Numbered from the stretch's first letter, positions 681 to 18,734 are shown. The stretch: 64,000 nt of DNA from an uncultured Verrucomicrobia subdivision 3 bacterium (GCA_903858275.1 CAIOIC010000028.1:93173-157172); one strand, 5' to 3'. Translations and numbers: made by a program. Notes: generated by a model not told the origin, from the sequence alone.

Positions 681-720
681 AATAAAAAACGCCCCGCTGG
701 TTGCAGCGGGGCGTTTGCGA
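681..720. terminator. Bidirectional rho-independent terminator between convergent genes
   Basis: 10-bp GC-rich stem CGCCCCGCTG (690-699) / CAGCGGGGCG (704-713) with a 4-nt loop. It is flanked by an A-run (682-689) and TTTG, so the minus-strand reading gives a hairpin followed by TTTTTTATT. Confidence 0.75.
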
Positions 721-1182: not shown

Positions 1183-3270
1183 TTATTTCGCCGCGCGGTC
1201 GAGCGCGTCGAGGATGGTGTTGGGCGTCAGCACATCCGGCAGGACGATGGCGTTGGCGGTGGGATTCTTGGGGTAAACGAGGACCAGGGGCACCCCGGCG
1301 CGGTTGAAGTGATTGAGTTCCGAGGTGATGGAGTCAGGGAAATGCGTGTAATCCGCGAGCAGCGCGATGGCGTTGAGTGCCTTGATTTTCGCTGCCACGG
1401 AGGGGATTTCGATGCTGGTGCGCTTGTTGACCTGGCAGGTGAGACACCAGTCGGCGGTGAAATCCACCAGCACGGGCCGGCCGGCGGCGCGTGCCTTGGC
1501 CAGCGCCTCGGGGCTCCACGCTTCCCACGCGATGCCGTCGCGGTCGTGCGTCAGGTGGGCGGCATTTTGCGGCGGGAGCGGCTGGCGCCAGCGCAGCTGG
1601 CTTTCCAGCACAAAAACGTAGGCGATGATCAGCAATGCCAAGGTGCTGATGGTGGCAAATAATCTGAACTTCCGGCCGCGCTGGACGAATTCGCCGAAAA
1701 ACCACGCGGCGAACGCCAGCAGCACCAGAAACACGCCCAGCCACAGCACGCGCTCGCCGTAACTTTCGGCGGCGAGGTTGAACAGCCAGACCACGGTCAG
1801 CATCATCGGAAACGCCATGGCCATCTTGAATTTTTCCATCCACGCGCCGGGCTTGGGCAGGAATTTCAGCCACGACGGGTTCCAGCTCAGGAGCACGTAA
1901 GGCGACGCGAGGCCGGCGGCCACGGCGGCGAAAATCAGCAGGATGACCACCGCGCTTTGGGCGAACGCGAAGCCGAGGGCGATGCTTAAAAACGGCGCCG
2001 TGCAGGGCGTGGCCAGCGCCGTGGCCAGTACGCCGTTGAAAAAGGCGCCCGCCGCGCCTTGCTTGGAGGAAAGATTGCTCGCGGTGTCCATGGCGCCGCC
2101 GTGGAGCGTCACTTCAAACAGGCCGTAGAGATTCAGCGCCACCAGCGTGACGAGCGAGACGAGGCAGACGAGAAAAATCGGATTGCCGAACTGCATGCCC
2201 CAGCCGGCCTTGTGCCCGGCGGCCTTGACGCCGATCACCACCGCCGCCAGCACGAGGAAGGAGGCGAGCACGCCCAGCGCATAAACCAGCCCCAGCATCC
2301 GGACGTGGCGCGGTTCGCTCCGCGCTTCATTCACGAAGCCGAGAATTTTCAGCGCGATGACCGGCAGCACGCAGGGCATGATGTTCAGGATGAGGCCGCC
2401 GATGAAGGCGTAAATGAGCATCCGCCACAGGGGCTCGGTGCTTTGCGGCGGGGCGAAGCTGGCCGCGACGGGCGTGGAACTGATGGCGGTTTTGCCTTCG
2501 ACCGCGCCCTCGGTGGTGATGAACACGCCGGAAATATCCAGCGGCCAGTCGCCGGCGGATTTTTTCACAATCTTGCGCAGATGGATTTCTCCCGCCGGGG
2601 CCGCGAGCAATTCCGTTGCGCCTTGGATTTCCAAATTGTCATAGGCGGTGGGGAAGAAGTCAGCGCCCGTCGCCTTGCCCGGCCATTGCAAATTGAGGCT
2701 GCGGGTTTTGTCGTTTGTGGATTGTTCCCACCAGGCCTTGGCGGAAAAATTTCCGGCAATCGCTGGAACCTTGGCCTGCCAGGATTTGAGCTGCGCGGAG
2801 TCGGCGGAAGGCTTGGTTTCGCTGCCGGCGGTCAAGGTGCCTTTGATTTCCGCGCTGGCGGGAATGCAGGAATCCTTGCATTCCAGCCAGGAGACTTTGG
2901 CGGCAAGATTCAACAGGCCGGGCGGGACGCCTTTGTCGAGCTTGAGCGGCACGAGCAGGACGACTTCGTTTTCGTAGCCGTAGGTGGTGACCTCGGCGGG
3001 CGGGAGTTTTTGTGGCAGCGGCCACTGGATGTTGCCGGCGGTCACGCCGGGCGGCAACTGCCACTTGATCTCGGTGGCCTGCCCGGCATCGCCGGGGTTT
3101 TTCCAATAAGTGTGCCAGCCGGATTCCATTTTCAGCTGCACGCCGACGATCATCGTTTCGCCGGTTTTCGCGGCGGCGGGCAGGAGCAGCTTCACCTCGG
3201 TGTGGGCGGCGCTGGCGGTGTTCAAAGCCAGCATCAGAGAGGCGAGCAGAAAGAAGTTTCGCGCGGTCAT
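1183..3270 (-). CDS. dsbD: Thiol:disulfide interchange protein DsbD (DipZ family)
   Basis: 695 aa. N-terminal periplasmic domain, multi-TM core with the MPCVLP and TPCTAPF Cys motifs, and a C-terminal thioredoxin domain with WCLTCQ. Confidence 0.9.
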   Translation of the reverse strand: MTARNFFLLASLMLALNTASAAHTEVKLLLPAAAKTGETMIVGVQLKMESGWHTYWKNPGDAGQATEIKWQLPPGVTAGNIQWPLPQKLPPAEVTTYGYENEVVLLVPLKLDKGVPPGLLNLAAKVSWLECKDSCIPASAEIKGTLTAGSETKPSADSAQLKSWQAKVPAIAGNFSAKAWWEQSTNDKTRSLNLQWPGKATGADFFPTAYDNLEIQGATELLAAPAGEIHLRKIVKKSAGDWPLDISGVFITTEGAVEGKTAISSTPVAASFAPPQSTEPLWRMLIYAFIGGLILNIMPCVLPVIALKILGFVNEARSEPRHVRMLGLVYALGVLASFLVLAAVVIGVKAAGHKAGWGMQFGNPIFLVCLVSLVTLVALNLYGLFEVTLHGGAMDTASNLSSKQGAAGAFFNGVLATALATPCTAPFLSIALGFAFAQSAVVILLIFAAVAAGLASPYVLLSWNPSWLKFLPKPGAWMEKFKMAMAFPMMLTVVWLFNLAAESYGERVLWLGVFLVLLAFAAWFFGEFVQRGRKFRLFATISTLALLIIAYVFVLESQLRWRQPLPPQNAAHLTHDRDGIAWEAWSPEALAKARAAGRPVLVDFTADWCLTCQVNKRTSIEIPSVAAKIKALNAIALLADYTHFPDSITSELNHFNRAGVPLVLVYPKNPTANAIVLPDVLTPNTILDALDRAAK

Positions 3271-3311: not shown

Positions 3312-6300
3312 TCAGGGGGCGACTTGCAACCGATAGAATCGGCCGTTGGATTTGGTGTTATCGCTCATCTGGCAATGGCCGCTGGCATCGGCGGTGTTGG
3401 TGGAAACATTAAACCAAATTGCGAGGTCGTCTGTGGCTTGCAAAATGTAATTGGCCCCCGGCGTGCCGGTGCATGTCAGCACAAAGCTGGCGCTTTGGGG
3501 AGAACTGATTTTTGAACTGACGCCGGAGCTGGTGCTCGCGCTGATTTGGAGCACCGGCGGGGCGGAAACGATGGCTTTTGCCGATACGCCCGCGCTTGGA
3601 AGGGAATTAGCCTTCACCGTATTTCCATTGTGCTCGTCATCGTCGGAAGAGCGCTTGGCGACCACTTTCAGAACGGCGTTGGAACTGGTAACCGTGGCAC
3701 CCGGATTCTTGACCGTCAAGGCATACGACCCGGCATTGCTGGTCCGAACATTGGTGATGGTCAGCACGTTGGAGAACGAACCGGAAATGTTTCCCCCGTT
3801 GGTGAGCGCCACGCCGTCCTTTAACCACTGGTAGGTGAATGGTGCCGTGCCGGAAACCGCCGCGCGGAACACGGTGGTCGTTCCGTTAGTTGCCGTCCGG
3901 CTGCCTGCCTGCAACGTGAACACCGGCGGCAACCAGACCGTCAGGGTGGCGTTGGCACTCGTGACGCTGCCCGCTAGATTTGTGACCACCACCGAATAAG
4001 CTGCGGCGTCCGTCATTTTGGCGCTGGCGATGGTGTAGGTGAAATTCGTGGCGTTGGCAATGGCCACGCCGGCTTTGCGCCACTGGTAGCGCAGCGTTTC
4101 CGTGCCGGTGGCGGCGACGCTGAATGTCACGGCGTTGCTCGCCAGGATCCCCTGGTTTGCGGGTTGTGTGATGATGGCTGGCGGCACGATCACGGCAAGC
4201 GATGCGTTGGTGCTGGTGGCGCTGCCAGCCACGTTGCTGGCGGTCAGGCCATAGGCGCCGTTGTCATTGGTCGTGAGATTGGCGACCGTCAGCACGTTGG
4301 AGAATGAACCGGAAATATTTCCGCCGTCGGTGAGCGCCACGCCGTCCTTGAACCATTGGTAGCTGAACGGCGCGGTGCCGGAGACGATCGCGCGGAAAAC
4401 GGTGTTCGTGCCGGACTTCGCCCAGCGGCTCGCCGCCTGCACCGTGAACGCCGGTTTAATATTGACCGTCAGGGTGGCGTTGGAACTCGTGACGCTGCCT
4501 GCGAGATTTGTGACCACCACGGAATAAGCCGCGGCGTCCGTCGTCTTGGCGATCGCCAGCGAGAAGGCGGCGTTCGTGGCGTTGGCAATGGCCACGCCGG
4601 CTTTGCGCCACTGATAAAACAACTTCTCTGTGCCGCTGGTCGTCGCCGTGAACGTCACGGCGTTGCTCAAGGTGACGGATTGGTTCGTTGGTTGCGCGAT
4701 GATGGCCGGTGGCACGATTACGGCGAGCACGGCGTTGGTGCTGGTCGCGCTGCCGGCCACATTGTTGGCGGTCAGGTAATAGGCGCCGCTGTCATTCGTG
4801 ATGAGATTGGCGACCGTTAGCACGTTGGAAAGTGAGCCGGAGATATTTCCGCCGTCGGTGAGCGCCACGCCGTCTTTGAACCACTGGTAGCTGAACGGGG
4901 CGGTGCCGGAAATGGTCGCGCGGAAAACGGTGTTGGTGCCGGATTTCGCCCAGCGATTCGCGGCCTGCGCTGTGAACGCCGGTTTAATATTCACCGTCAA
5001 GGTGGCGTTGGAACTCGTGACGCTGCCCGCAAGATTTGTGACCACCACGGAATAAGCCGCGGCATCCGTTGTCTTGGCAATCGCCACTGAGAAGGCGGCG
5101 TTCGTGGCCCCGACAATCGCCACACCGGCTTTGCGCCATTGATACCGCAGCTGTTCCGTGCCGGTGGCGGCTACCGTGAACGTCGCGGCGTTGCTCAAGG
5201 TGACGGATTGGTTCGCCGGCTGCGTGATGATCGCCGGTGGCACGACCACTGTGAGCACGGCGTTGGTGCTGGTGGCGCTGCCGGCTACGTTGCTGGCGGT
5301 CAGGTAATAGGCACCGTTGTCATTCGTGATGAGATTGGCGACCGTTAGCACGTTGGAAAGTGAGCCGGAGATATTTCCGCCGTCAGCGAGCGCCACGCGG
5401 TCTTTGAACCACTGGTAGCTGAACGGGGCGGTGCCGGAAATGGTCGCGCGGAAAACGGTGTTGGTGCCGGATTTCGCCCAGCGGTTCGTTGCCTGCGCTG
5501 TGAACGCTGGCTTTACATTCACCGTCAGGGTGACGTTGGAACTCGTGACGCTGCCCGCGAGATTTGTGACCACCACGGAATAATTCGCTGCGTCCGTCGT
5601 CTTGGCTACCGCTAGCGAGAAGGTTGCGTTCGTGGCTCCGGCAATCGCCACGCCGGCTTTGCGCCATTGATAACGCAGCGTTTCTGTGCCAGTGGCGCTG
5701 ATGCTGAATGTCACAGCGTTGCTCAAGGTGACGGATTGACTGACCGGTTGGGTGGTGATGGCCGGCGGCACGAGCATGGTCAATGTGGCATTTCTGCTCG
5801 TGGCGCTGCCCACGGCGTTGCCGACGGTCACGGAATAATTGCCGGCCTCCGCCGCCGTCAGCCCGGAAAGTTTCAGGACGTTCGTGGTGGAGCCGGAAAT
5901 ATTCCCGCCCTCCGCGAGCGGCGAACCGTTTTTGAGCCACTGGAAATTCAGCGGCCCGCTGCCGGTGGCGGTCACGGCGAACGTGACGTTGGTTCCGATG
6001 ATGACCGCGCGGTTGGTCGGGTGTCCGGTGATGGCGGGTGGCGTGAAGACCGCCAGCTTGGCCACCGAACTGGTGATGCTTCCATAGATATTCGTGATGA
6101 TGACGGAGTAATTTCCGTTGTCGTTGGTCGAGACATTGGCGAGCGCAAGCGTGGGCAAAGTTGTGCCGGAAACCGTTGCGCCAATGATTAGGCCGCCTCC
6201 CGGCCGGACAGGCGGAACAGGCGGTTTCGGCATGCCCCACGGCGGCGGCGGAACCGACGGCGGAATGCTGGTGGTGGGGCCGCCATAAACGAGGGTGCCG

Positions 6301-9300
6301 TTGGTGAGAGGGGTTCCGTTTTTCAGCCACCGGTATGCCAGCGGGCCGGTGCCGGCGGCGGTGACGGTGAAGGTCGCCGTGTTGCTCACGGCAACATTCT
6401 GGCTGGCGGGCGGCATGATGATGATGGGCGAGGCGTTGATGGAAACATTTGCGTTCGCGCTGGTGACGATGCCGTAGGCATTGCTGACCACGACGGAATA
6501 AGTGTCCACTTCATTCGTTGTCAGCGCGGTAATGGTCAGGTTGGTGGTGGCGGAGCCGGAAATATTTCCGCCGTCCGCCAGCACGATGCCGTGCTGGAAC
6601 CATTGGTAGCTCAGCAGCCCGGTGCCGCTGGCGACCACGGCCAGATTGATCGTGCTGCCGAGTGCGCCGAATTGGTTGGCCGGTTGCGTGACGATGGCCG
6701 GCGGCAAGAGCACCGTGAGCACGGCGGCGGAACTTGTCGCGGTGCCGGCGGCATTGCTGACCACGACGGAATAGCTCGCGGCATCGGCAGCTGAAATGTT
6801 GTTGAGACTCAGTGTCGCCGCCGTCGCGCCGGCGAGGTTGGCGCTGTTTTTCTTCCATTGATAAGTCAGTGGCGCGGTGCCGCTGGCGGTTACGGTGAAC
6901 GAAACATTGCTGCCCGCCAGCGCCGTGACATCGGCGGGTGGCGTGTCAATCGTGGGTGGCACCAGCACCGTGAGGGCGGCGGAGGAACTGGCCGCGCTTC
7001 CGGCGATGTTGGTGACCACCACGGAATAATTACCGGCATCATTGGTGCTGACGGCGGAAAGGGTAAACAAATTGGAAACCGCACCGGCGATGGCGGCGCC
7101 GTTTTTCAACCATTGGAAGCTCAGCGGCGCGGTGCCGGCGGCGGTGGCGCTGAATGAAACTGGATTGCCCTGCACGACGCTGGTGCTGGCCGGAGCCGTG
7201 GTGATGGCGGGCGGCACCAGGACGGTCAGCGCGGCGGCGGCGCTGGTGGCGCTGCCGACGGCGTTGGTGACGGTGGCGGAATAACTCGCCGCGTCCGCCG
7301 CCGCAAGATTTGCCAGCGTCAGCGAGGCGGTGTTCGCGCCGGAGACATTGCCGCCGTTGGCGATGGCCGCGCCATTTTTCTTCCATTGATAAACCAGCGG
7401 CGCGGTGCCGCTGGCGGTGACGGTGAACGAAACATTGCTGCCGGCGATCAGTGTTGCGTCCGCCGGAGAAGTGATGATGGCGGGCGGCACGGAAACCGTG
7501 AGTGAAGCCGCCGGACTGGTGATGGTGCCGAGGCTGTTGCTGACGATCACGGAATAGCTGGCGGTCTCATTGGTGGTGACGGCGGAAAGAATCAGATTGG
7601 TCGTGCCGGCCCCGGAGACGTTCCCGCCGTCGGTGAGCGGAGAATTGTTTTTCAGCCAGAAATAGAACAGTGGGGCGGAACCGGCGGCGCTGACGGTGAA
7701 GCTGGCGTTCGCCCCGGCGACGACGGACAGATTGGCCGGCGGGGCGGTGATGGTCGGCGTGGCGACGATGGTGAGCGGCGCGACGGCGCTGGTCACGCTC
7801 CCGGCGGCGTTGGTGATGATCACGGAGTAATTGCCCGTGTCCGCCGCCGCCACGGCGGTGACGGTGAGCGCGCTGGTGGTGACGCCGGAATATTTTACGC
7901 CGTTGGCGATGGCTGCACCATTCTTGAGCCATTGATAGGCGAGCGGCGCGGAGCCGGTGGCGGTGACGGAGAAACTGGCGCTGACGCCGCCGGCGACGGC
8001 TTGCGCGGCCGGCTGGGTGGAGATCGTGGGTGGCACCAGCACCGTGAGGGCGGCGGAGGAACTGGCCGCGCTTCCGGCGATGTTGGTGACCACCACGGAA
8101 TAATTGGCGGCGTCATTGGTGCTGACGGCGGAAAGGGTGAGGACATTGGAAACCGCGCCGGGGATGGCGGCGCCGTTTTTTAACCATTGGAAGCTCAAGG
8201 GCGCGGTGCCGGCGGCGGTGGCGCTGAATGAAACTGGATTGCCCTGCACGACCGTCGCGTTGGTCGGCGCCGCCGTGATGGCGGGCGGCACCAGGACGGT
8301 CAGCGCGGCGGCGGCGCTGGTGGCGCTGCCGACGGCGTTGGTGACGGTGGCGGAATAACTCGCCGCGTCCGCCGCCGCAAGATTTGCCAGCGTCAGCGTG
8401 GCGGTGTTCGCGCCGGAGACGTTGCCGCCGTTGGCGATGGCACTGCCATTTTTCTTCCATTGATAAACCAGCGGTGCGGTGCCGCTGGCGGTGACGGTGA
8501 AAGTGACATTGCTGCCGGCAATCCGCGTAGCGTCCGCCGGTGAAGTGACGATGGCGGGCGGCACGGAAACCGTGAGCGCGGCGGCGGTGCTGGTGATGGT
8601 GCCGAGGCTGTTGCTGACGATCACGGAATAGCTGGCGGCGTCATTGGTGGTGACGGTGGAGAGAATCAGATTGGCCGTGCTGACGCCGGAAACATTGCCG
8701 CCGTTGGCGAGCGGGGAATTGTTTTTCAGCCAGAAATAGAACAGCGGCGCGGAACCGGCGGCGGTGACAGTGAAGCTGGCGCTGGCCCCGGCGACCACGG
8801 AAAGATTGGCGGGCGGGGTGGTGATGGTCGGCGTGGCGACAATGGTGAGCGGCGCAACCGCGCTGGTCACGCTGCCGGCGGCGTTGGTGATGACGACGGA
8901 GTAATTGCCCGTGTCCGCCGCGGCGGCGGCGGTGACGGTGAGTCCGCTGGTGGTGACGCCGGAATATTTTGCGCCGTTGGCGATGGCCGCGCCGTTTTTC
9001 AACCACTGATAGGCGAGCGGCGCAGAGCCGGTGGCGGTGACGGAGAAACTGGCGCTGACGCCGCTGGCCACAGCTTGTGCGGCGGGCTGGGCGGTGATGG
9101 TCGGTGGCAAAATCACCGTGAGCGCGGCGGCGGTGCTGGTGGCGGTGCCGACGCTGTTGCTGACGAGGACGGAATAATTTGCCGCGTCCGCCGCCGCCAC
9201 AGTGGTGAGGGTGAGCGTGGCGGTGGTGGCGCCGGCGATATTGCCGCCGTTGGCGAGCGGCGAATTATTTTTCAGCCAGAAATAGCCGAGCGGCGCGGTG

Positions 9301-9914
9301 CCGGAGGCGGTGGCGGTGAAGGTCGCGGTTTTTCCCGCGACGACATTGGTGGCGCTGGGGGCCTTGGTGATGGCCGGAGCCGTGGGCGTGGTGGTGCCGG
9401 TGATGGTGAGGGTGATGGTCTGCGAGAGCGTGGCGTTGCCGGGGCTGACCACGGTGACGGTGGTGGCATAGGTGCCGGCGGCGGTCGGCGTGCCGGTGAG
9501 AGTGCCGCCGATGGTTGTGGCATTGTTTACCCAGGAGGCGGTGAAGGTCAGTCCGGGTGGCAAAGTCGCAGTTGTGCTCTGGCCGTTCATCAGCAGAGTG
9601 GAGGTCACCGTGCCGGCGGACAGGAAAAAGTAATCATTCGCCGCCGCCTTGCTGCCGCCGCCGATGGAGACCGTGACGTTCTGGCTGAACGCCGTGCCCA
9701 CCGTGCCGCTGAACGTGCTGGGCGTGGTGTAGGTTGAGGTTGCGGCGGAAACCGCATCCACCGAGCCCAGCACCGCGCCGGTGCCGATGCCCCAGCGCAG
9801 GATGAAAGCGAAGGTGTTGCCGGTGGCCGGGTTGACGAGCATGGTCCGCACCAGCGGCAGCACCTGCAACAGGGCCGCTAGTATCACTGCCGGTTTTTGG
9901 AGGCGGATATGCAT
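3312..9914 (-). CDS. Giant secreted/surface protein with 21 tandem Ig-like (I-set type) domains (2200 aa)
   Basis: 6.6-kb ORF. Bipartite hydrophobic leader, then a He_PIG-like head (GTPTAAGTYATTVTV). I counted 21 modules of about 88-92 aa, each with a [YF][QFR]W strand motif and an NYSV-type motif. The C-terminal domain of about 85 aa ends FYRLQVAP. Confidence 0.9.
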   Translation of the reverse strand: MHIRLQKPAVILAALLQVLPLVRTMLVNPATGNTFAFILRWGIGTGAVLGSVDAVSAATSTYTTPSTFSGTVGTAFSQNVTVSIGGGSKAAANDYFFLSAGTVTSTLLMNGQSTTATLPPGLTFTASWVNNATTIGGTLTGTPTAAGTYATTVTVVSPGNATLSQTITLTITGTTTPTAPAITKAPSATNVVAGKTATFTATASGTAPLGYFWLKNNSPLANGGNIAGATTATLTLTTVAAADAANYSVLVSNSVGTATSTAAALTVILPPTITAQPAAQAVASGVSASFSVTATGSAPLAYQWLKNGAAIANGAKYSGVTTSGLTVTAAAAADTGNYSVVITNAAGSVTSAVAPLTIVATPTITTPPANLSVVAGASASFTVTAAGSAPLFYFWLKNNSPLANGGNVSGVSTANLILSTVTTNDAASYSVIVSNSLGTITSTAAALTVSVPPAIVTSPADATRIAGSNVTFTVTASGTAPLVYQWKKNGSAIANGGNVSGANTATLTLANLAAADAASYSATVTNAVGSATSAAAALTVLVPPAITAAPTNATVVQGNPVSFSATAAGTAPLSFQWLKNGAAIPGAVSNVLTLSAVSTNDAANYSVVVTNIAGSAASSSAALTVLVPPTISTQPAAQAVAGGVSASFSVTATGSAPLAYQWLKNGAAIANGVKYSGVTTSALTVTAVAAADTGNYSVIITNAAGSVTSAVAPLTIVATPTITAPPANLSVVAGANASFTVSAAGSAPLFYFWLKNNSPLTDGGNVSGAGTTNLILSAVTTNETASYSVIVSNSLGTITSPAASLTVSVPPAIITSPADATLIAGSNVSFTVTASGTAPLVYQWKKNGAAIANGGNVSGANTASLTLANLAAADAASYSATVTNAVGSATSAAAALTVLVPPAITTAPASTSVVQGNPVSFSATAAGTAPLSFQWLKNGAAIAGAVSNLFTLSAVSTNDAGNYSVVVTNIAGSAASSSAALTVLVPPTIDTPPADVTALAGSNVSFTVTASGTAPLTYQWKKNSANLAGATAATLSLNNISAADAASYSVVVSNAAGTATSSAAVLTVLLPPAIVTQPANQFGALGSTINLAVVASGTGLLSYQWFQHGIVLADGGNISGSATTNLTITALTTNEVDTYSVVVSNAYGIVTSANANVSINASPIIIMPPASQNVAVSNTATFTVTAAGTGPLAYRWLKNGTPLTNGTLVYGGPTTSIPPSVPPPPWGMPKPPVPPVRPGGGLIIGATVSGTTLPTLALANVSTNDNGNYSVIITNIYGSITSSVAKLAVFTPPAITGHPTNRAVIIGTNVTFAVTATGSGPLNFQWLKNGSPLAEGGNISGSTTNVLKLSGLTAAEAGNYSVTVGNAVGSATSRNATLTMLVPPAITTQPVSQSVTLSNAVTFSISATGTETLRYQWRKAGVAIAGATNATFSLAVAKTTDAANYSVVVTNLAGSVTSSNVTLTVNVKPAFTAQATNRWAKSGTNTVFRATISGTAPFSYQWFKDRVALADGGNISGSLSNVLTVANLITNDNGAYYLTASNVAGSATSTNAVLTVVVPPAIITQPANQSVTLSNAATFTVAATGTEQLRYQWRKAGVAIVGATNAAFSVAIAKTTDAAAYSVVVTNLAGSVTSSNATLTVNIKPAFTAQAANRWAKSGTNTVFRATISGTAPFSYQWFKDGVALTDGGNISGSLSNVLTVANLITNDSGAYYLTANNVAGSATSTNAVLAVIVPPAIIAQPTNQSVTLSNAVTFTATTSGTEKLFYQWRKAGVAIANATNAAFSLAIAKTTDAAAYSVVVTNLAGSVTSSNATLTVNIKPAFTVQAASRWAKSGTNTVFRAIVSGTAPFSYQWFKDGVALTDGGNISGSFSNVLTVANLTTNDNGAYGLTASNVAGSATSTNASLAVIVPPAIITQPANQGILASNAVTFSVAATGTETLRYQWRKAGVAIANATNFTYTIASAKMTDAAAYSVVVTNLAGSVTSANATLTVWLPPVFTLQAGSRTATNGTTTVFRAAVSGTAPFTYQWLKDGVALTNGGNISGSFSNVLTITNVRTSNAGSYALTVKNPGATVTSSNAVLKVVAKRSSDDDEHNGNTVKANSLPSAGVSAKAIVSAPPVLQISASTSSGVSSKISSPQSASFVLTCTGTPGANYILQATDDLAIWFNVSTNTADASGHCQMSDNTKSNGRFYRLQVAP
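3657..5768 (-). repeat. Four tandem 528-bp units (two Ig domains each) inside the giant gene
   Basis: Each unit begins PPAI(I/T)(T/A)QP and contains LRYQWRKAGVAI plus FSYQWFKDGVAL domains. Unit boundaries read at 5768 and 3657 give exactly 4 x 528 nt. Antisense ORFs ending at 4820 and 5348 are offset by 528. Confidence 0.85.
6960..9107 (-). repeat. Tandem duplication of a 1074-bp four-Ig-domain block (2 copies: 6960-8033 and 8034-9107)
   Basis: The PPTI(T/S)(A/T)QPAAQAVA block starts read at 9107 and 8033, and the next PPTIDTPP starts at 6959. Near-identical shadow ORFs are offset by exactly 1074 (7039-7386 vs 8113-8460, 7567-7932 vs 8641-9006). Confidence 0.9.
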
Positions 9915-9926: not shown

Positions 9927-11213
9927 TTAGGGCACGACCATCAGGCGGTAAAACAGGCTGGGCGCGCTCGGGTTGTTCGAAATGGTGATCGGTGTGGGCG
10001 TGGCGGTGGGCGGATAGTTCGTGAACACGCCCCAGTTGGTGCTGGCAAGGACACCGTTCGTCAGCACCGTGTTGGTGAGGCCGGCGATGGGCGTGAAAGT
10101 GAACTGAAATTGTGTGCCGCCCTGAATCGAACCGCCCACCATCGGCGGCAACGGATTCGTCACCACCAGGTTGGCGATGGCGCTGGTCACGCTGCCCGCG
10201 CTGTTGGTGAGGATGACGGTGTAGGCCCCGGCCTGGCAGGCGCGGAGGTTGGTGAAGGAGAGCGAGGCATTCGTTCCGCCGACAATGCTGGTGGTGATCA
10301 GGTTGGTGGTGATCCGCCATTGGTAGGCGAGGGCGGGGAAACCTCCGGCGGTGATGGCGAGGCTGCCGGAACCGCCGGCCACGTTGGTGAAACTGACGGG
10401 GGAATTGGTGATGACCGGCGGCTGCCAGACCGTGAGCGTGGCAAAGGAGCTGGTGACCGAGCCGGAGGAATTGGTGATGATGACCCGGTAATTACCGGTG
10501 TTCGTCAGCTGAATATTCGTCAGCGTGAGCGAGGTGTTCGTGGCGTTGAGCAGCGCGGTGTTGGTGTTGAAATACCACTGATAATGCAAGGGTGCAGTGC
10601 CGGCGGTGACGGTGAACGTGGCGTTGCTGCTGACGTTGTTGGTCAGGCTGACGGGTTGGTTGGTGATGACGGGGGGAGAACCGGCTGGTAAAATTGTTAT
10701 CCAAAAATTTGTTTCTACCACTAATGATAAATAAGTAATTATGACGTGAACATAGAGGTTGGTAACGGGTGTTGTTGGGGTTCCATAAATTGCTCCATAG
10801 ATTGGCTTGGGGGTACCGCCGATATTTAAGTCGTAAAATTTGAAGACTAAACCGGCAGGCATACAGCTTGTGGTTGAATTTCCGTTTAGTAACGCAGTAG
10901 AAACAACGCCCGACTTATTGGTGAGAACACAAAAAGCTCCAGAATTTCCACCGTTGTTTGTGATCGCCACGTTGTTAGTGAAGTAGATTCCAGCAGTTCC
11001 TGTAAAATTTGTTGAATTTGTAAAAATAACAGGCGCTGACGCTCCTGACACTGCATCCACTGCGCCCAGCGCGGCACCAGTGCCAATGCCCCAGCGGAGG
11101 ATAAACGCAAAGGTGTTGCCGGTGGCGGGGTTGATAAACAGGTTCCGCACCAGCGGCATGAGCTGCAAGGCTGCCGCCAGAAAAACCGGAAGTGTTTGGG
11201 TGAGTCTTTTCAT
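9927..11213 (-). CDS. Secreted Ig-like domain protein, short paralogue of the giant protein (428 aa)
   Basis: Same leader (LPLVRN..NPATGNTFAFILRWGIGTGAALGAVDAVSGA), a He_PIG-like head, two Ig-like modules (LHYQWYF, LAYQWRI) and a C-terminal domain ending FYRLMVVP. It stops 12 nt before the giant gene start. Confidence 0.85.
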   Translation of the reverse strand: MKRLTQTLPVFLAAALQLMPLVRNLFINPATGNTFAFILRWGIGTGAALGAVDAVSGASAPVIFTNSTNFTGTAGIYFTNNVAITNNGGNSGAFCVLTNKSGVVSTALLNGNSTTSCMPAGLVFKFYDLNIGGTPKPIYGAIYGTPTTPVTNLYVHVIITYLSLVVETNFWITILPAGSPPVITNQPVSLTNNVSSNATFTVTAGTAPLHYQWYFNTNTALLNATNTSLTLTNIQLTNTGNYRVIITNSSGSVTSSFATLTVWQPPVITNSPVSFTNVAGGSGSLAITAGGFPALAYQWRITTNLITTSIVGGTNASLSFTNLRACQAGAYTVILTNSAGSVTSAIANLVVTNPLPPMVGGSIQGGTQFQFTFTPIAGLTNTVLTNGVLASTNWGVFTNYPPTATPTPITISNNPSAPSLFYRLMVVP

Positions 11214-11324: not shown

Positions 11325-11543
11325 TTAGTTGCAACCGCAGCCGCCGCCGCCCACGCCGCGCCCGCCGCTGGCGGCCTCGCGGGAGAACCACATGTGCTCG
11401 ATCTGCGCCTGGCCCAGCGGATCGCGGTCAGCCCGCATGGTGTAGTCGGCCAGCGTTCCGCGCTGCCACGGTTTGACATTAGCACATCCACTCCCGATGA
11501 TAAGCAGGGGCAGTGCCAAGATGAGGAAAGCTTTGTATTTCAT
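11325..11543 (-). CDS. DUF4266-like lipoprotein (72 aa)
   Basis: Lipobox LIIGSGC, a VKPWQRGTLA core and a Gly-rich C-terminus ending GGGGCGCN, as I recall for DUF4266 family members. Confidence 0.75.
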   Translation of the reverse strand: MKYKAFLILALPLLIIGSGCANVKPWQRGTLADYTMRADRDPLGQAQIEHMWFSREAASGGRGVGGGGCGCN

Positions 11544-11548
11544 AGGTA

Positions 11549-12043
11549 TTATTTCAAAAGGGATTCAATTTCGCTGATGTATTCCTTGCGAGTGTCCTCA
11601 CCATGGAAACCATTGTGTAAAAATCGCACTTTGCCGGTGGCATCGAGGATGAAGGAGGTGGGCATGGTGGCCGGTTCCACGGCAGCCACGAGCTTCTGCT
11701 CGGCATCGCGCACGACGGTGAAGGAGACCGGATGTTTCGCCATGAAGGCGTCCATCTTGGACTTCTTGTCGTCCACATTCACGGCGAGCACGACCACGCG
11801 GTCGGCGTATTTCTTCTGGAGCTCGTCCAGCACCGGGAAGGACTTGGCGCAGGGCGTGCACCAGGAGGCCCAGAAATCCACGACGATGATTTTGCCTTTC
11901 AGCGCGTCGGGCAATTTGCCTTCCAGCTTGAAGCTGGCGAGGTCGGGCAGCGTGTCGCCGACCTTGAGGGCGGCGGACGCGGTGAAGAAGGTTCCGGCGA
12001 GCAGGGTCGCCACGGCGAATTTTTTAAGCAGGGATGTATTCAT
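11549..12043 (-). CDS. TlpA-family periplasmic thiol:disulfide oxidoreductase (164 aa)
   Basis: The start is taken at the internal ATG (12041-12043), giving MNTSLLKKFAVATLLAGTFFTASA as signal peptide. Active site FWASWCTPC. The longer track ORF (to 12763) is a shadow over apbE. Confidence 0.85.
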   Translation of the reverse strand: MNTSLLKKFAVATLLAGTFFTASAALKVGDTLPDLASFKLEGKLPDALKGKIIVVDFWASWCTPCAKSFPVLDELQKKYADRVVVLAVNVDDKKSKMDAFMAKHPVSFTVVRDAEQKLVAAVEPATMPTSFILDATGKVRFLHNGFHGEDTRKEYISEIESLLK

Positions 12044-13022
12044 GGAATTTACGGGAATAGAGTTTGGTGGTTTCAGTGGTGACGGCCCCGGCGGCGCCGG
12101 GATGGAGTTCGACGAGTTGCAAGCCCTCTTTCGCGCCGAGGATGCACACGCTGGTAGAAAGTAGACCGGCGATGGTGCAGCTCGGCGCGATGATGGACAC
12201 GGCCCGGCAATCGTTTTGTGCGGGATAGCCGGTGCGCGGGTCGAGGATGTGACCGTAGCGACGGCCGTTGATCTTGAAATTACGAAGATAGTCGCCGGAG
12301 GTGGCCACGGCATGGTCGGTGATGGCCACGCCGCCCCAGCATTTGCCGGGCGCGGTCGCGTCATCCAGGCCAATCCACCAGAATTTTTTCCCCGGCGCAT
12401 GGCCGCGCGCGCGCACGTCCTGGCCGAAATCCACCAGCACATTCGTGATGCCGCGCTGGATGGCCATGTTGATGACGCAATCCACGGCGTATTCCTTGCC
12501 GATGCCGCCAAGGTCGAGCGCCATGCCCGCCTGCGGCAAAAAGATGCCGCCGGCGCGGCGCTGGATCTTGTTCCAGCCCACGAGTTCGCGGGCGGCCTGG
12601 ATGTCGGCGTCCGTCGGGATGACGGGAGGATTGGCCTTCCAGTTCCACAATTTGATGAGCGGCAGCGCCGTCGGGTCAAACGAGCCGCGGGTGAAGAAAA
12701 ACAATTCCTGGCAGAGATTGAACAGCCGGTCGGTTTCGGGATCGGTTTCCACCCAATGTTCACCGGCAGCGGCGTTGATGCGGCCGATCAAACTGTCCGG
12801 AATGAACCGCGAATAGCGTGCTTCAAACTGCGCGACCCACGCCACGGCGTCGCGTTGAAAATCGCGGGCGACCGTGGCCGAAACGCCATGCAGCTTGATC
12901 TGGCATTGCGTGCTCATGGCCCGAAAGTCCAAACGATGCAGGCCGTTCTCGACCGTCGTCTGCGCGGATTGCATGACGCGGGCGATGACTTCGGCAGCTG
13001 TGTTGGAACTGGTCATTACCAT
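12024..13022 (-). CDS. apbE: FAD:protein FMN transferase (ApbE family)
   Basis: 332 aa with ApbE-like blocks (FDPTALPLIKLW, ALDLGGIGKEYAVD, ATSGDY..F..NG..YGHILDPRTG). Overlaps the flanking genes by 7 nt and 20 nt. Confidence 0.85.
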   Translation of the reverse strand: MVMTSSNTAAEVIARVMQSAQTTVENGLHRLDFRAMSTQCQIKLHGVSATVARDFQRDAVAWVAQFEARYSRFIPDSLIGRINAAAGEHWVETDPETDRLFNLCQELFFFTRGSFDPTALPLIKLWNWKANPPVIPTDADIQAARELVGWNKIQRRAGGIFLPQAGMALDLGGIGKEYAVDCVINMAIQRGITNVLVDFGQDVRARGHAPGKKFWWIGLDDATAPGKCWGGVAITDHAVATSGDYLRNFKINGRRYGHILDPRTGYPAQNDCRAVSIIAPSCTIAGLLSTSVCILGAKEGLQLVELHPGAAGAVTTETTKLYSRKFHEYIPA

Positions 13023-14239
13023 AAAATCGAGAGACCGACGGAAAAGACATTGGCCTTGGGATACATATCGGATGTGGTATTGTCCAAGCCCCTCATTTCA
13101 TAGCGATGATAACCAGCAATCACGCGTAGATGGTCGTTGATGATCACCGTGGCTTGCAGGCCGTAATCAATCGTGAACATGTTCGAGAGCCGGTAGTCGG
13201 ACGAATAATAGCCCGCGGGACTTGTCGTGAACGGCCCGGTGAAGGTGGTGGTGTAAAACGAGGCGGCGGATTGTTCGCTGAAGCGGAACATGGGTTCCAC
13301 CATGAGATGCTTGCCGAGCCATTGATGCCAGGTCAGGCCGACGGTATGGCTGAACACATCATAGGAGTCGTGATAAAAACGATAGGATCCCTCCAGGCTC
13401 GCATCGAGTGAATCGAAGTGATGCGTCAGCGAGGTGTAGAGGATTTGTTTGTTGCGATGCGCGGGCCGGCGTTCGGGCACGCCGATGTTGAAACCGGTGG
13501 GGAAAATGTCAGGATGATATTCCGCCAGCCGATAGGGATCGCTCATGTAGCCGGAATCATTGCCGATGGTGAAGGCGACATTGAGAATATCCTTGGGCGA
13601 CAGCAGTTGGGTGATGCCGACGATGCCATCGGTGGTATCTTTTCCGATCCAGGTTTTCTTGTCCGATTGGCGGATAGTGTCAAAGTTGTGCGAGACGCCG
13701 AGTTGTAGTGTGGTGTTCTTGTCGTTGAACTCATAAGCCTCGTTCAGCGAAATGCCGTAGGAGAGGTAATCGTGTTCTTTGCTCCAGGAAAAACCGGGAG
13801 TGAGGGTGTGACTCTTAATTTTCCAATCCAGCGCAATATTAGCTGCACGGCGGAGGTCGGGTTCGATTTTTTGAATGATGGCTTTACCGTCCAGACCGTG
13901 TGTGCCTGTTGGCGTGGCGCCGGAGACGCTATCATAAATCAGTTCGCCCTTGGCGATGATGGAATCAATGAGCTTCTGTTCGAAATAGACGGAGTGCGTC
14001 TCGATTTTCATCCGATTGCCATCCTCGTCGTAATAGCCGTAGCGGTAGTCCACATGGTTTTCCGCGCGGAGGAGCGACGGCAGGGTGAGGGTCATCCCCA
14101 GCGGCAGGAAGCGGCGCCATTGGCGCGCGATGTGCCAGGCCAAATTTGCCGCCGGAGTCGGTTGAGAAGAATGCAGTTTTTTCGTCATATATTTGCGCGG
14201 TTTTCTAAAAATCTGTCGTGAGCATAGCGGCCCGTCCAT
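13016..14239 (-). CDS. DUF3570-like protein, probable outer-membrane beta-barrel
   Basis: 407 aa, or 390 aa if it starts at MTKK (14188). Alternating beta-strand-like composition with many Y/G/D/S residues and a C-terminal aromatic end (GLSILW). Contains DSVSGAT at aa 103-109. Family call is from memory of the DUF3570/DUF4266/ApbE/thioredoxin synteny. Confidence 0.65.
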   Translation of the reverse strand: MDGPLCSRQIFRKPRKYMTKKLHSSQPTPAANLAWHIARQWRRFLPLGMTLTLPSLLRAENHVDYRYGYYDEDGNRMKIETHSVYFEQKLIDSIIAKGELIYDSVSGATPTGTHGLDGKAIIQKIEPDLRRAANIALDWKIKSHTLTPGFSWSKEHDYLSYGISLNEAYEFNDKNTTLQLGVSHNFDTIRQSDKKTWIGKDTTDGIVGITQLLSPKDILNVAFTIGNDSGYMSDPYRLAEYHPDIFPTGFNIGVPERRPAHRNKQILYTSLTHHFDSLDASLEGSYRFYHDSYDVFSHTVGLTWHQWLGKHLMVEPMFRFSEQSAASFYTTTFTGPFTTSPAGYYSSDYRLSNMFTIDYGLQATVIINDHLRVIAGYHRYEMRGLDNTTSDMYPKANVFSVGLSILW

Positions 14240-14296
14240 AAAAGAGACGGGTATGAAAGATTAAAAAATTTTTAAGTTGGCTGGCCGGTCGGCGGG

Positions 14297-15349
14297 TCAA
14301 ATCTGGAAGGATTGCGGCTGTTCCACCAGCGGCAGCCGGAGGCGGGCGATGTGATAATTTTTGCCGAGTCGGCGTTGGAAATGGATCTCCGGCTCGAGGC
14401 GCAGCAGCGCCGCCACCACGCGCAGGCCGAGGCCGAGCGTGGCTTCGGCATTGGCTGATTGGCGCACGCGGTTGGTCACGATCAGCACCGCCTGCTGCCG
14501 GTGCCGCCGGATGCGCACCGTGAAATCGCCTTCACCATGCTTGAGCGAATTGGTGAGCAGGGAATGGGCAATCTGCCGGACGTGGCGCGGATCGGCGGAT
14601 ACCCAGCAGTCCGGAATGGATTGCAGTTTGAACTGGCGCCCCTCTTCGGTGGCGAGCAGTTGAAAATCTTCCACCACTTCCGTGATGGTGGCGCCCAGAT
14701 TGAACACCGAGCGCGCGGCCAGCATCCGGCCCTGTTCGGCCCGGGCGATGAGCAGCGATTGATCAATGACGTGCGTGAGCCGGTGGAGTTCGCTCTCGAG
14801 TTCCTCCGCGAGCTCGGGGGCGATGCGGTCGCCGGCCTGCTCCACTTTCAGCCGGATGATGGCCAGCGGCGTGCGGAGTTCGTGCGCGACCTTGGCCGCG
14901 TAGGCGTTCATCTCGGCAAAGGATGCGTCCAGCCGCGCCAGCAGATCATTCAGTTGCCGGAGCAGGTCGCGAAATTCCAGATCCACTTCCGGCAGCGAAA
15001 TTGGTTCGCCGAGATTGCCGGGATTTTTTGCCTGCAGCTGCCGGTTCACGCTGGCGATGGGCCGCAGCGATTGCCGCGCCAGCCAGAAGCCGCCGGCGAC
15101 CGCCACCACCATCACCGGAATGAGCCACATCAGCGCGGTGTTCAGCACGGCATCAGAAATCTGGTGGACCTCCGCCTCGGTCAGGCTGTTGTGCAGCCGC
15201 CAGTCCGGCATTTCGGGATAAGTCCGGTTGCAGGCCTTCTCCAGCAGCTCGGATTCCAGCACCAGATGCAGGATGTGGGTGAACGCGATGGTCACCGTGG
15301 CGAAGCCGAGCGCGCCCCATAGCGTCAAACGTGTGCGCAGGGATTTCAT
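14297..15349 (-). CDS. Sensor histidine kinase (HAMP-HisKA-HATPase, CusS-like but with a short periplasmic loop)
   Basis: Two TM segments flank a loop of about 35-40 aa. H-box AKVAHELRTPLAII. C-terminal ATPase G-boxes (LGLGLRVV). Confidence 0.85.
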   Translation of the reverse strand: MKSLRTRLTLWGALGFATVTIAFTHILHLVLESELLEKACNRTYPEMPDWRLHNSLTEAEVHQISDAVLNTALMWLIPVMVVAVAGGFWLARQSLRPIASVNRQLQAKNPGNLGEPISLPEVDLEFRDLLRQLNDLLARLDASFAEMNAYAAKVAHELRTPLAIIRLKVEQAGDRIAPELAEELESELHRLTHVIDQSLLIARAEQGRMLAARSVFNLGATITEVVEDFQLLATEEGRQFKLQSIPDCWVSADPRHVRQIAHSLLTNSLKHGEGDFTVRIRRHRQQAVLIVTNRVRQSANAEATLGLGLRVVAALLRLEPEIHFQRRLGKNYHIARLRLPLVEQPQSFQI

Positions 15350-16026
15350 GCCGGCTCCTCCTCCCGCAGCGCAAAGCCAACGCCGCGCACCGTGTGGATG
15401 AGCGGCGGCCGGCTGGGCAGGTCGATTTTGCGGCGCAGCAATTTGATGTAAACATTCACAACATTGGTCTCGGAATCGAAATGCTGGTCCCAGACGTGCT
15501 CGATAATGGAGGTTTTGCTCACCGGCTTGGGCGAGGCGTTGATGAGAAATTCCAGCAGGGAAAATTCGCGCGGCGTCAGCTCGATCTTTTCCTCCCCGCG
15601 CTTGGCTTCGTGCGAGAGCAGATCCAGTTCCAGGTCGGCCACCCGGATGACGTTCGTCGTCTGCGGCCGCTGCCGCCGCAATACGGCGCGGAGCCGGGCG
15701 AGCAATTCCGCGATGGAAAAAGGTTTGGTCAGATAATCATCCGCGCCGGCATCCAGCCCGCGCACCTTGTCCTCGATGTCGTCGCGCGCCGTGAGGAAAA
15801 TGACCGGCGCGAGAATCTGCTTGCGCCGCAACAGCCGCACAACGGTGATGCCGTCCTTGTGCGGCATGCCGATGTCCAGCAGCAGCGCGTCATAGGTGTT
15901 CGATTCGGCCAGCCAGATCGCCTCGTCGCCATCATGGGCCACGTCCACCGCATAGCCCTCCGCCGCGAGCCCGGCCCGGACGTGCTCCGCTACTTTACGT
16001 TCATCTTCCGCTAGCAGGATGCGCAT
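15346..16026 (-). CDS. OmpR-family response regulator (CusR/heavy-metal type)
   Basis: The start is taken at the ATG at 16024-16026 (MRILLAEDE...). Receiver domain with DALLLDIGMP and ADDYLTKPF, plus a winged-helix C-terminus (IHTVRGVGF). 4-nt overlap with the kinase gene. Confidence 0.9.
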   Translation of the reverse strand: MRILLAEDERKVAEHVRAGLAAEGYAVDVAHDGDEAIWLAESNTYDALLLDIGMPHKDGITVVRLLRRKQILAPVIFLTARDDIEDKVRGLDAGADDYLTKPFSIAELLARLRAVLRRQRPQTTNVIRVADLELDLLSHEAKRGEEKIELTPREFSLLEFLINASPKPVSKTSIIEHVWDQHFDSETNVVNVYIKLLRRKIDLPSRPPLIHTVRGVGFALREEEPA

Positions 16027-16095
16027 GGATTTGTTAAGAACATAATCTGTGGCGGGGCAATTCACCATGGAAAAATGGAGCGTTGCCTGCTTCCC

Positions 16096-16135
16096 TGATT
16101 TCGGAGCGCGGGACTGTGTCCCGCCGCCTCTGGAA
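16096..16135 (+). repeat. Truncated third copy of the 110-nt repeat family (first hairpin only)
   Basis: GATTTCGGAGCGCGGGACTGTGTCCCGCCGCC aligns with GATTTGAAAACGGAGCGCGGGTCTGTGACCCGCAGCGG of the copies at 57250 and 58571. The stem GGGAC/GTCCC replaces GGGTC/GACCC. Confidence 0.6.
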
Positions 16136-16428: not shown

Positions 16429-16555
16429 CCTCGCTCCTCGTCGTCCGTAAGGTCGGCTGGACAGCATGTTTGCGAACCGATAACTGATTCCCTCCTTGGG
16501 ACAGGATTGATGGCTCGCCAACTTCAAAAAGTTGCTGAAAAAAACTTTAGCTATT

Positions 16556-17410
16556 ATGCCCGTTAAAACATTTAGACCGCTGACGCCGTCCACGCGATAC
16601 ATCACCATCGCGGACTTTAGCGACATTACGAAGACGACGCCCGAGAAGTCGCTTGTGGAAATCCGCAAGAAGACCGGTGGCCGCAATATGTACGGCCGCG
16701 TCACCGCTCGCGGTATCGGCGGCGGTCACAAGCAGAAAATCCGCCTCGTCGATTTCAAGCGCAACAAGCATGGCGTCGAAGCCACGGTGTCCGCGATTGA
16801 ATACGATCCGATGCGCTCGGCGCGCCTGGCCCTCCTCGAATACAAGGACGGCGAGAAGCGCTACATCATCGCCCCGGTCGGCGTGACGGTGGGTCGCGTC
16901 ATTTCCAGCGGGCCGACGGCTCCGCCCGAAGTGGGCAACGCCCTCCCGCTCAAGTCGATTCCCGTCAGTTCGGCGATTCACAATTTGGAGCTGACCCCCG
17001 GCCGTGGCGGTCAGATCGTTCGTTCCGCCGGCGGCGCCGCGACGCTGATGTCGCGCGACGAAGGTTACGCGCAGATCCGCCTGCCTTCCGGTGAAATCCG
17101 CAAGGTCAACGAGGAATGCTATGCGACCATCGGTCAGGTCGGCAACACCGAGCACGAAAATGTGGTTTTGGGCAAGGCGGGGCGCACCCGTCATCGCGGT
17201 CATCGCGGTATCACCCGCGGTATGGCGCGCAACCCGGTGGACCATCCGAACGGCGGCGGTCAGGGTAAATCCAAGGGCGGCGGCGGCTGGCAGCAGCTCA
17301 TGTCCCCGTGGGGCAAGGTGGCCAAGGGTGGTAAAACCCGCGCCAAATATAAACAATCCAACCGTTTCATCGTGGTTCGCCGCAACGGGCTGCCGATCAA
17401 GACCAAGTAA
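16556..17410 (+). CDS. rplB: 50S ribosomal protein L2
   Basis: MPVKTFRPLTPSTRY start, with GGGHK, RNPVDHPNGGGQGK. Confidence 0.97.
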   Translation: MPVKTFRPLTPSTRYITIADFSDITKTTPEKSLVEIRKKTGGRNMYGRVTARGIGGGHKQKIRLVDFKRNKHGVEATVSAIEYDPMRSARLALLEYKDGEKRYIIAPVGVTVGRVISSGPTAPPEVGNALPLKSIPVSSAIHNLELTPGRGGQIVRSAGGAATLMSRDEGYAQIRLPSGEIRKVNEECYATIGQVGNTEHENVVLGKAGRTRHRGHRGITRGMARNPVDHPNGGGQGKSKGGGGWQQLMSPWGKVAKGGKTRAKYKQSNRFIVVRRNGLPIKTK

Positions 17411-17416
17411 AATTTT

Positions 17417-17698: not shown

Positions 17699-17703
17699 TT
17701 TTT

Positions 17704-18036: not shown

Positions 18037-18037
18037 T

Positions 18038-18712: not shown

Positions 18713-18734
18713 TTTTTAAGAAAGTATTTTTGTT

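Follow-up and report, generated by a model that had tools for sequence, protein, structure and literature searches.

The closest known counterpart of the locus treated here was described by Méheust et al. (eLife 2021; PMC8238504), who reported 227 gene clusters in which DsbD accompanies ApbE, DUF3570, a thioredoxin-like protein and DUF4266, as well as 316 further clusters of the same core without DsbD nearby, i.e. 543 in total. Experiments in that study showed that the cognate ApbE flavinylates DUF3570 of Chlorobium luteolum at two [S/T]GA[S/T] motifs; the recombinant protein was mostly found in the insoluble pellet of E. coli, yet it was flavinylated. A hybrid thioredoxin/flavin electron-transfer system fed by DsbD was proposed, with the remark "function uncertain". 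In some Proteobacteria, JDVT-CTERM surface-sorted proteins adjoin the DUF4266/DUF3570/TlpA genes (Haft preprint, 10.1101/2023.06.07.544157), which provides a precedent for a lineage-specific surface partner. Here, we analysed a DUF3570 locus on the minus strand of a stretch of 64,000 nucleotides (nt) from an uncultured Verrucomicrobia subdivision 3 bacterium (GCA_903858275.1 CAIOIC010000028.1:93173-157172, in the following the window), for which an earlier note, made from the DNA sequence, had proposed an envelope redox operon.

We consider it fairly probable that this locus encodes, in a verrucomicrobial (subdivision 3) version, the flavin/thiol system for electron transfer in the cell envelope that is built around DUF3570 and linked to DsbD. 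It is assigned to the "DsbD system" class because a complete DsbD is encoded downstream on the same strand. The core of ApbE, DUF3570, TlpA-like thioredoxin and DUF4266 is already published under this name and, as originally claimed, is not new. The earlier note held that neither DUF has an assigned function, which is out of date: DUF3570 is an experimentally shown ApbE substrate, and DUF4266, taken there as uncharacterised, has already been described as a secreted CXC protein (PMC8238504). Its proposal of an extracytoplasmic electron-transfer or metal-handling module can be kept for electron transfer, which agrees with PMC8238504, and is not supported for metal handling. New are the predicted barrel with an outward flavin site, an ApbE that lacks a signal peptide, an immunoglobulin (Ig)-repeat partner with its N-terminal module (N-module), and a frequent two-component control. 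None of these four features was found in the literature searched. PMC8238504 is silent on a barrel or porin, a missing ApbE signal peptide, an Ig partner and a two-component pair, and no searchable PF12094 or Verrucomicrobia rows were found in its supplements.

A nine-gene redox unit and its relatives

The unit consists of nine same-strand genes, which encode an OmpR-type response regulator (RR), a sensor histidine kinase (HK), DUF3570, ApbE, a TlpA-like thioredoxin (Trx), DUF4266, the two Ig-repeat proteins IgS and IgL, and DsbD (Table 1). For the first six of them, open reading frames (ORFs) and Pfam matches agree with the gene positions and family calls of the earlier note, profile searches support all of the named families (ApbE, DUF3570, DUF4266 and thioredoxin/Redoxin), and the operon-like packing has been borne out, with a 4-nt overlap, a 57-nt gap, a 7-nt overlap, a 20-nt overlap and a 5-nt gap following each other from RR to DUF4266. 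The true start of RR is the ATGCGC at 16026, a start codon that is kept across loci. Homologues suggest that DUF3570 likely starts at M18 (14188), in which case the gap between HK and DUF3570 increases from 57 to 108 nt. While the six genes stand, their extent was given too short, since IgS, IgL and DsbD also belong to the unit. It reaches approximately 10 kb beyond the six genes to position 1183, and DsbD is located approximately 8 kb downstream of the core with IgS and IgL in between. The downstream gaps amount to 111 nt (DUF4266-IgS), 12 nt (IgS-IgL) and 41 nt (IgL-DsbD). This extension was read from annotated contigs with an identical DUF3570 protein and supplemented by our own checks. No intergenic terminator-like hairpin was found on the minus strand from 16068 to 1183.

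Dozens of independent loci show the same gene order DUF3570-ApbE-Trx-DUF4266, which is therefore not due to chance. Across the loci L001-L080, the wider order [RR-HK]-DUF3570-ApbE-Trx-DUF4266-IgS-[IgL]-[DsbD] was observed repeatedly in verrucomicrobial loci, with DsbD downstream in many related ones; where the records name an organism, it belongs to the Verrucomicrobiae or to subdivision 3. The more distant loci L011 and L012 keep DUF3570-ApbE-Trx-DUF4266. In the distant locus L083 (809-5850), genes for ApbE, a cytochrome b561-like protein and a c-type cytochrome (313 amino acids, aa) precede Redoxin-DUF4266-DUF3570, and a GerE-type regulator is present. The two cytochrome genes stand in the place of DsbD, i.e. 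another electron input seems to feed the same output module, which supports a role in electron transfer. A cytochrome b gene near the cluster of L005 is counted with such alternative inputs. Altogether, the search for DUF3570 representatives resulted in 1820 clusters at 50% identity (E ≤ 0.001).

Table 1 Features of the redox unit. Coordinates refer to the whole window of 64,000 nt; all genes of the unit lie on the minus strand.
Feature	Position	Strand	Evidence and remarks
OmpR-family response regulator (RR)	15346..16026	-	Pfam Response_reg 3e-29 and Trans_reg_C 2e-25
HAMP/HisKA sensor histidine kinase (HK)	14297..15349	-	Pfam HAMP, HisKA, HATPase_c; periplasmic loop ~38 aa
DUF3570 (PF12094)	13016..14239	-	Pfam 1e-60, 206 bits; C-terminal residue Trp
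Flavinylation motif D-S-V-S-G-A-T of DUF3570	13913..13933	-	T109 of ORF = T92 from M18; single copy
ApbE-family FAD:protein FMN transferase (PF02424)	12024..13022	-	Pfam 9e-73, 245.5 bits vs cut-off 25.6; without signal peptide
Exported TlpA/ResA-like thioredoxin (Trx)	11549..12043	-	Pfam Redoxin, AhpC-TSA, Thioredoxin_8; WCTPC at 11849-11863
DUF4266 lipoprotein (PF14086)	11325..11543	-	Pfam 4e-21; lipobox Cys20; Gly-rich tail ends C-G-C-N; CGC at 11331-11339
IgS, 428-aa Ig-repeat protein	9927..11213	-	residues 1-59 = N-module (11037-11213), end DAVSGAS (11037-11057)
IgL, 2200-aa Ig-repeat protein	3312..9914	-	same N-module (9738-9914), end DAVSAAT
Three-domain DsbD, membrane electron importer	1183..3270	-	DsbD_N, DsbD_TM, Thioredoxin_7
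Promoter-like element region upstream of RR	16027..16100	-	aligned upstream regions, 12 loci; function inferred
First strong intrinsic-terminator-like hairpin past the unit	687..716	-	13-bp stem, 9 GC pairs

Some of the related loci show further peculiarities. In L005 (3911-8379), the orthologous two-component pair is found 4 kb upstream, genes for a cytochrome b (Ni_hydr_CYTB) and a hydrolase are located between it and DUF3570, rubrerythrin and DUF2231 genes precede the pair, and behind the Ig gene there is another two-component pair. The distant metagenome loci L073 and L075 have no ApbE between DUF3570 and the thioredoxin and keep the Ig N-module protein, with the N-module of L073 retaining …DAVSGAST.

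At its downstream end, the unit is followed by an ORF for a small exported protein of 89 aa with an EF-hand-like DADKNGKLDEKE loop (735-1004, minus strand) just past dsbD. This ORF could be where the transcript has its final gene. The hairpin behind it is the only strong terminator hairpin of the region. On the other side, the unit is divergent from a ribosomal-protein operon (16532-23300, plus strand) that begins at rplB (L2) and lacks rpsJ, rplC, rplD and rplW upstream; the redox genes occupy the usual site of rpsJ/rplC/rplD/rplW, as is likewise the case in L001 and L006. The rest of the window contains housekeeping genes (SecDF, RecJ, helicases), among which no further flavinylation substrate was found.

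Putative flavinylation of DUF3570 and its predicted barrel

The ApbE of the window matches FMN transferases of the PDB, e.g. 7esa at 4e-32, in an alignment that covers the HILDPRTGYP, TSGDY and LDLGGIGKEYAVD segments; the catalytic His is presumably the one within HILDP. Its N-terminus (MVMTSSNTAAEVIARVMQSAQ…) lacks hydrophobic character, and a stop closes the frame upstream of it. Furthermore, a signal peptide was found on none of 39 distinct ApbE N-termini from DUF3570 clusters, which share 51-100% identity with the window ApbE and include those of L011 and L012, and the upstream frame is stop-closed in 37 of the 39. Their maximum Kyte-Doolittle 12-residue mean (KD12) is mostly around 1, compared to 2.0-3.1 among the neighbouring exported proteins. 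The distant ApbE of L083 likewise has no signal peptide; in total, 41 cluster-linked ApbE N-termini were examined and all are without one. The usual extracytoplasmic signal of ApbE proteins, i.e. a signal peptide or lipobox, which is not strictly defining, is absent here. The simplest reading would be a flavinylation of DUF3570 in the cytoplasm prior to export, which would set DUF3570 apart from the usual exported substrates of ApbE. It is suggested by the lack of a signal peptide on ApbE, by the existence of cytosolic ApbEs (PMC12052999) and by the finding that even the insoluble DUF3570 was flavinylated in E. coli.

The putative flavinylation site of DUF3570 is one SGAT inside YDSVSGATP, in which G90 and P93 do not vary, and D86 and A91 hardly do, among 83 homologues. 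A single motif occurs in 109 of 117 close relatives; among the representatives, 56 proteins with one motif compare to 24 with two. One motif is thus the commonest state, and the idea that the single motif of the window protein is an oddity was rejected. Regarding export, a Tat signal (WRRFLPL) was also rejected, because the twin arginine is not conserved and orthologues read WQR or have none.

The earlier suggestion that DUF3570 is probably an outer-membrane protein agrees with structure prediction. Based on the 83-sequence alignment, AlphaFold2 returned a confident model (pLDDT 93.5) with an N-terminal helix, corresponding to the signal peptide, and then 16 long antiparallel strands. A Foldseek search with this model against the PDB resulted exclusively in outer-membrane barrels (PelB, BcsC, PgaA, FadL, Occ porins, OmpG), with E values of about 1e-8 to 5e-9 and TM scores up to 0.52. 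DUF3570 is hence predicted to form a 16-strand outer-membrane β-barrel, and the protein ends in Trp. The turns on the side of the N- and C-terminus comprise 2-4 residues, while long loops (214-243, 307-336, 368-377) are situated on the opposite side. The topology was assigned by the usual rule for outer-membrane proteins, according to which long loops face the outside. T92 is positioned in a 21-residue strand six residues ahead of loop 2, and all of the 13 invariant columns of the alignment (G90, P93, R113, D140, D170, G213, D217, R241, P242, R302, Q306, D331, R333) belong to the predicted outer half or the loops. We infer from the model that the flavin site is located in this conserved outer half of the barrel.

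Thioredoxin and DUF4266

Trx carries the signal peptide MNTSLLKKFAVATLLAGTFFTASA with A as the next residue, the WCTPC motif and MPTSF. Its best NCBIfam match is ResA with 100.9 bits (cut-off 170), compared to 55.6 bits for TlpA (cut-off 230), i.e. the protein appears to be a member of TlpA/ResA/CcmG at the family level only. DUF4266 has a lipobox and a tail, GGGGCGCN, that is invariant in the orthologue alignment; a distant homologue keeps GGCGCN. Judged from the Ala at +2, the lipoprotein is probably anchored to the outer membrane.

Ig-repeat partners and their N-terminal module

IgS is always encoded directly after DUF4266 in this clade, and IgS and IgL share a stretch of approximately 59 aa (…LAAxLQxxPLxRN…AxILRWGxG…G.DAxS(G/A)A(S/T)), in which Q17, P20, R23, R40 and W41 are invariant. 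Neither N-module has a Pfam or NCBIfam match at E values up to 5. A metagenome scan seeded on the N-module alone resulted in 68 loci. Where at least approximately 1 kb of upstream sequence was available, DUF4266, Trx, ApbE and DUF3570 were found directly upstream or, in the most distant loci, with a DsbD_TM-like gene intervening between DUF4266 and the module-bearing gene. The same scan of a genome collection gave 4 loci only, with a pattern that was derived narrowly, and the first 180 aa of IgS as homologue query retrieved 10 fragments. In the most distant loci, 6 of 8 module-bearing proteins scanned possess Ig domains, and 2 have no Pfam match. Because the N-module is found in or beside these clusters wherever the upstream sequence suffices, we read its occurrence as pointing to an element specific to the DUF3570 system and not to a general secretion signal.

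At its end, the N-module resembles an ApbE site, and in IgS the DAVSGAS there amounts to a complete minimal motif. Among the window ORFs of at least 100 aa, the strict ApbE motif occurs in DUF3570 and IgS only. In 95 orthologues, the motif is canonical in 61 and canonical save for an exchange of G to A in 13; D is present in 92 and S/T in all 95. A seven-residue motif is enough for ApbE, and flexible termini are the best substrates (review PMC12052999). DAVSGAS of IgS is situated in a low-confidence coil of the AlphaFold2 model. Signal peptidase I would recognise a site of just this pattern, too. Flavinylation of the D-x-x-S-G/A-A-S/T end is regarded as quite possible but less likely than not; otherwise, it would represent a signal-peptidase site.

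The second case leads to an alternative explanation of the Ig proteins, which could be secretion or anchoring clients with DUF3570 as their outer-membrane partner, whereas the N-module would be an extended signal peptide, functionally ESPR-like. Signal peptidase I would cut after S-x-A, the likeness to an ApbE site would be coincidental, and DUF3570 alone would make use of the thiol and flavin parts. The variation among 75 module sequences is consistent with the -3/-1 rule, as S occurs at -3 in 72 of them, position -2 is free (G51, A20, R3, K1) and position -1 is small (A68, S4, G2, V1). Moreover, AlphaFold2 puts two low-confidence helices and coil at residues 1-60 of IgS with folded domains from about 62, and the Ig proteins are very long β-rich rods like the passengers of type V systems. 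Nevertheless, D at -6 (72 of 75) and S/T at +1 (75 of 75, split about evenly) are conserved beyond the signal-peptidase rule and correspond to the two conserved end positions of the ApbE motif, of which variants with G to A or A to V still retain approximately 50% flavinylation (PMC12052999). In addition, the invariant residues of the module are not kept in ordinary signal peptides, no ESPR (PF13018) or other Pfam/NCBIfam match was obtained for either N-module, and the DUF3570 loci examined outside the clade (L012, L081-L083) have no Ig partner. We rate this explanation as unlikely and prefer to see the Ig-repeat proteins as partners of an electron-transfer system.

Several other observations concern the Ig proteins. 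The fold search with IgS yielded generic I-set Ig strings only (titin, PTPδ) and no redox clue. Both proteins end in a β domain of approximately 60 aa (9927-10139 in IgS; 3312-3500 in IgL) that terminates with …(R/L)FYRLxVxP; this C-terminal FYR…P is kept in orthologues and has no Pfam or NCBIfam match. The domain could serve in sorting or anchoring. The loci L001 and L002, which originate from one study, are 99.8% identical over a 13.2 kb flank, while approximately 360 nt of L001 (13200-13558, corresponding to ~10680-11040 of the window and to the first β-sandwich domain of IgS) are without detectable similarity to L002, and IgL comprises 2200 aa in L001 vs. 1043 aa in L002. Inside IgL, Tandem Repeats Finder reported a 273-nt period at 8567-9320, self-BLAST revealed kb-scale segments of 81-90% identity, and the repeat number differs between related contigs. 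The Ig genes look like a hypervariable, recombining surface cassette.

The upstream two-component pair

The earlier note had assumed a heavy-metal-type sensor pair, which the analysis did not support. RR reaches 249.7 bits against TIGR01387, its best NCBIfam match, which is below the cut-off of 279.2, and HK reaches 119.3 bits against TIGR01386 (cut-off 292.55) with its cytoplasmic part only. By these scores, the pair is not demonstrably a heavy-metal two-component system, and the unit holds no metal transporter. The loop alignment of HK shows a conserved YPxxPDWxLH and revealed no conserved Cys, no conserved Met and no CusS-type domain. A redox-sensing Cys in this loop was rejected; Trp replaces Cys in more distant orthologues.

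Among the distinct clade loci with enough upstream sequence, RR and HK were found directly upstream in 8, and 5 more on partial contigs have at least HK, whereas 3 have RR only and 6 have neither. The two-component pair is a frequent yet dispensable addition, present in approximately 70% of the clade loci. RR without HK stands upstream of DUF3570 in L008, L054 and L064; L008 (5333-6866) has two tandem RR copies with approximately 73% identity to the window RR. Upstream of RR, most related loci (12 aligned) share TTGACA(~17 nt)TGnTGAAT, where the window reads CAGGCA…TGGTGAAT; this element seems to be promoter-like.

The regulator leads to another explanation, an envelope thiol oxidase or oxidant defence, in which the same chain would form disulfides or remove O2, H2O2, HOCl or quinones at the surface instead of driving an extracellular reduction, and RR would act like the oxidant-responsive HprR. 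Among the NCBIfam matches of RR, HprR ranks second (206.7 bits), rubrerythrin and thioredoxin are encoded near the cluster of L005, and Erv2p, to which the CGC tail of DUF4266 is compared below, is a thiol oxidase. However, the HprR score is far under its cut-off of 353, the unit contains no methionine sulfoxide reductase or peroxidase, and DsbD is a reductant importer, which is better suited to electron delivery than to disulfide formation. Hence, we regard such a role as highly improbable. Weaker still is the handling of Cu, Ag or another thiophilic metal, with the pair as sensor, the CGC of DUF4266 as ligand, the TlpA-like protein keeping it reduced and the barrel as channel: the best NCBIfam subfamilies of RR and HK are heavy-metal ones, TlpA proteins help to assemble copper centres in other bacteria, soft metals can be bound by CXC motifs and one locus (L005) has a P-type ATPase gene at a distance of 10 kb from its cluster, but this idea appears most improbable in view of the sub-cut-off scores with an HK match restricted to the cytoplasmic part, the sensor loop of ~38 aa without conserved Cys/Met or CusS-type domain, the absence of a metal pump, CopC/CopD or multicopper oxidase from the unit, the dispensability of the pair in approximately 30% of the loci, and the flavin transferase and flavinylated barrel, which it leaves unexplained.

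Proposed electron flow and its significance

If the locus indeed functions as a DsbD-linked electron-transfer system, ApbE would attach FMN to T109 of DUF3570, probably in the cytoplasm and ahead of Sec export; the attachment as such has been demonstrated at the family level (PMC8238504). According to the established chemistry of its family, DsbD would take up reducing equivalents from thioredoxin in the cytoplasm and convey them through the inner membrane to the exported thioredoxin with WCTPC, which in turn may reduce the terminal C-G-C of DUF4266, carried on a flexible Gly-rich tail. By analogy with the CGC arm of Erv2p, this tail could reach the FMN held in the barrel and pass two electrons to it. 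From the flavin in the outer barrel half, electrons might then go to an acceptor located at the outer membrane or further out, possibly with the involvement of the Ig proteins. These would be lineage-specific surface partners, whose N-module either docks or targets them to the machinery or is itself flavinylated. Finally, the OmpR-type pair would turn the unit on upon some envelope signal.

A number of points weigh against this scheme. For this organism, the direction in which electrons move, their acceptor and the physiological role of the system are all deduced from sequence and models. Where the flavin would be situated with respect to the membrane is derived from AlphaFold2 secondary structure and standard topology rules. 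We know of no precedent for the cytoplasmic flavinylation of a Sec-exported barrel, ApbE might reach the periplasm by a route that is invisible in the sequence, and the signal peptide of DUF3570 is only weakly hydrophobic (KD12 1.26). Moreover, the two-component pair is missing in approximately 30% of the clade loci, and no such pair was found outside the clade among the few loci examined, where L012 has a lone receiver domain and L083 the GerE-type regulator.

A more daring extension of the DsbD-linked scheme would be a haem-free outer-membrane conduit, in which cytoplasmic ApbE loads both the barrel and the N-terminus of the Ig fibre, and electrons powered by DsbD pass via thioredoxin and the CGC of DUF4266 to the barrel FMN, the fibre FMN and extracellular acceptors. 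We consider this conduit a long shot. If true, it would be a new kind of extracellular electron transfer with the first ApbE substrates modified before export; already a flavin at the cell surface would open a non-haem route by which electrons could cross the outer membrane. The DUF3570 system occurs widely, as the 1820 clusters found here and the 543 published gene clusters (PMC8238504) show, and is known to be flavinylated. The predicted barrel, the apparently cytoplasmic ApbE, the Ig partner of this clade and the possible second flavinylation site make specific and cheap experiments on its function possible.

Comparison with known systems

Regarding regulation, CusRS, CopRS and HprRS are the closest curated subfamilies for both window proteins, and the 4-nt gene overlap is typical of them. 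The window pair is under all of the curated cut-offs, and its loop of ~38 aa carries no conserved metal ligands, whereas a CusS-type periplasmic domain comprises approximately 150 aa.

The thiol branch resembles the DsbD/CcdA pathways to TlpA, ResA or CcmG in the combination of a membrane DsbD with an exported CXXC thioredoxin that has a cis-Pro loop. The presumed client differs, as it would be a CXC lipoprotein or flavoprotein here and not apocytochrome c or a CuA site. For the next step, the flavin sulfhydryl oxidases Erv2p and QSOX, which use a flexible C-terminal CGC shuttle arm, may serve as analogues: in both cases C-G-C is placed on a flexible tail beside a flavin, and the chemical route would lead from a dithiol to the flavin with two electrons. 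There is no kinship in sequence or fold; in the window system FMN would be phosphoester-linked to a β-barrel and the CGC belongs to a separate lipoprotein.

Conduits of the MtrCAB type consist of an outer-membrane barrel, redox cofactors and a surface partner and are fed from the periplasm. An outer-membrane β-barrel with a redox cofactor and a surface-exposed partner is also proposed here, but the unit is without haems, the covalent FMN would be attached to the barrel itself, and the passage of electrons through the outer membrane is no more than a hypothesis here. With the JDVT-CTERM proteins, the Ig proteins share the role of a lineage-specific sorted surface protein within a DUF3570 neighbourhood that is presumed to work with DUF3570. 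Those proteins are sorted by a C-terminal Cys signal and a CPBP protease, while the partner in the window is characterised by an N-terminal module and Ig repeats.

The closest agreement is obtained with the DsbD-linked DUF3570 system, with which the locus has ApbE, a DUF3570 with [S/T]GA[S/T], a thioredoxin-like protein, a DUF4266 with C-terminal CXC and a co-located DsbD in common. The differences are that the DUF3570 of the window has one motif, in contrast to two in the tested Chlorobium protein, that two Ig-repeat genes part DsbD from the core, and that an OmpR-type pair is placed upstream.

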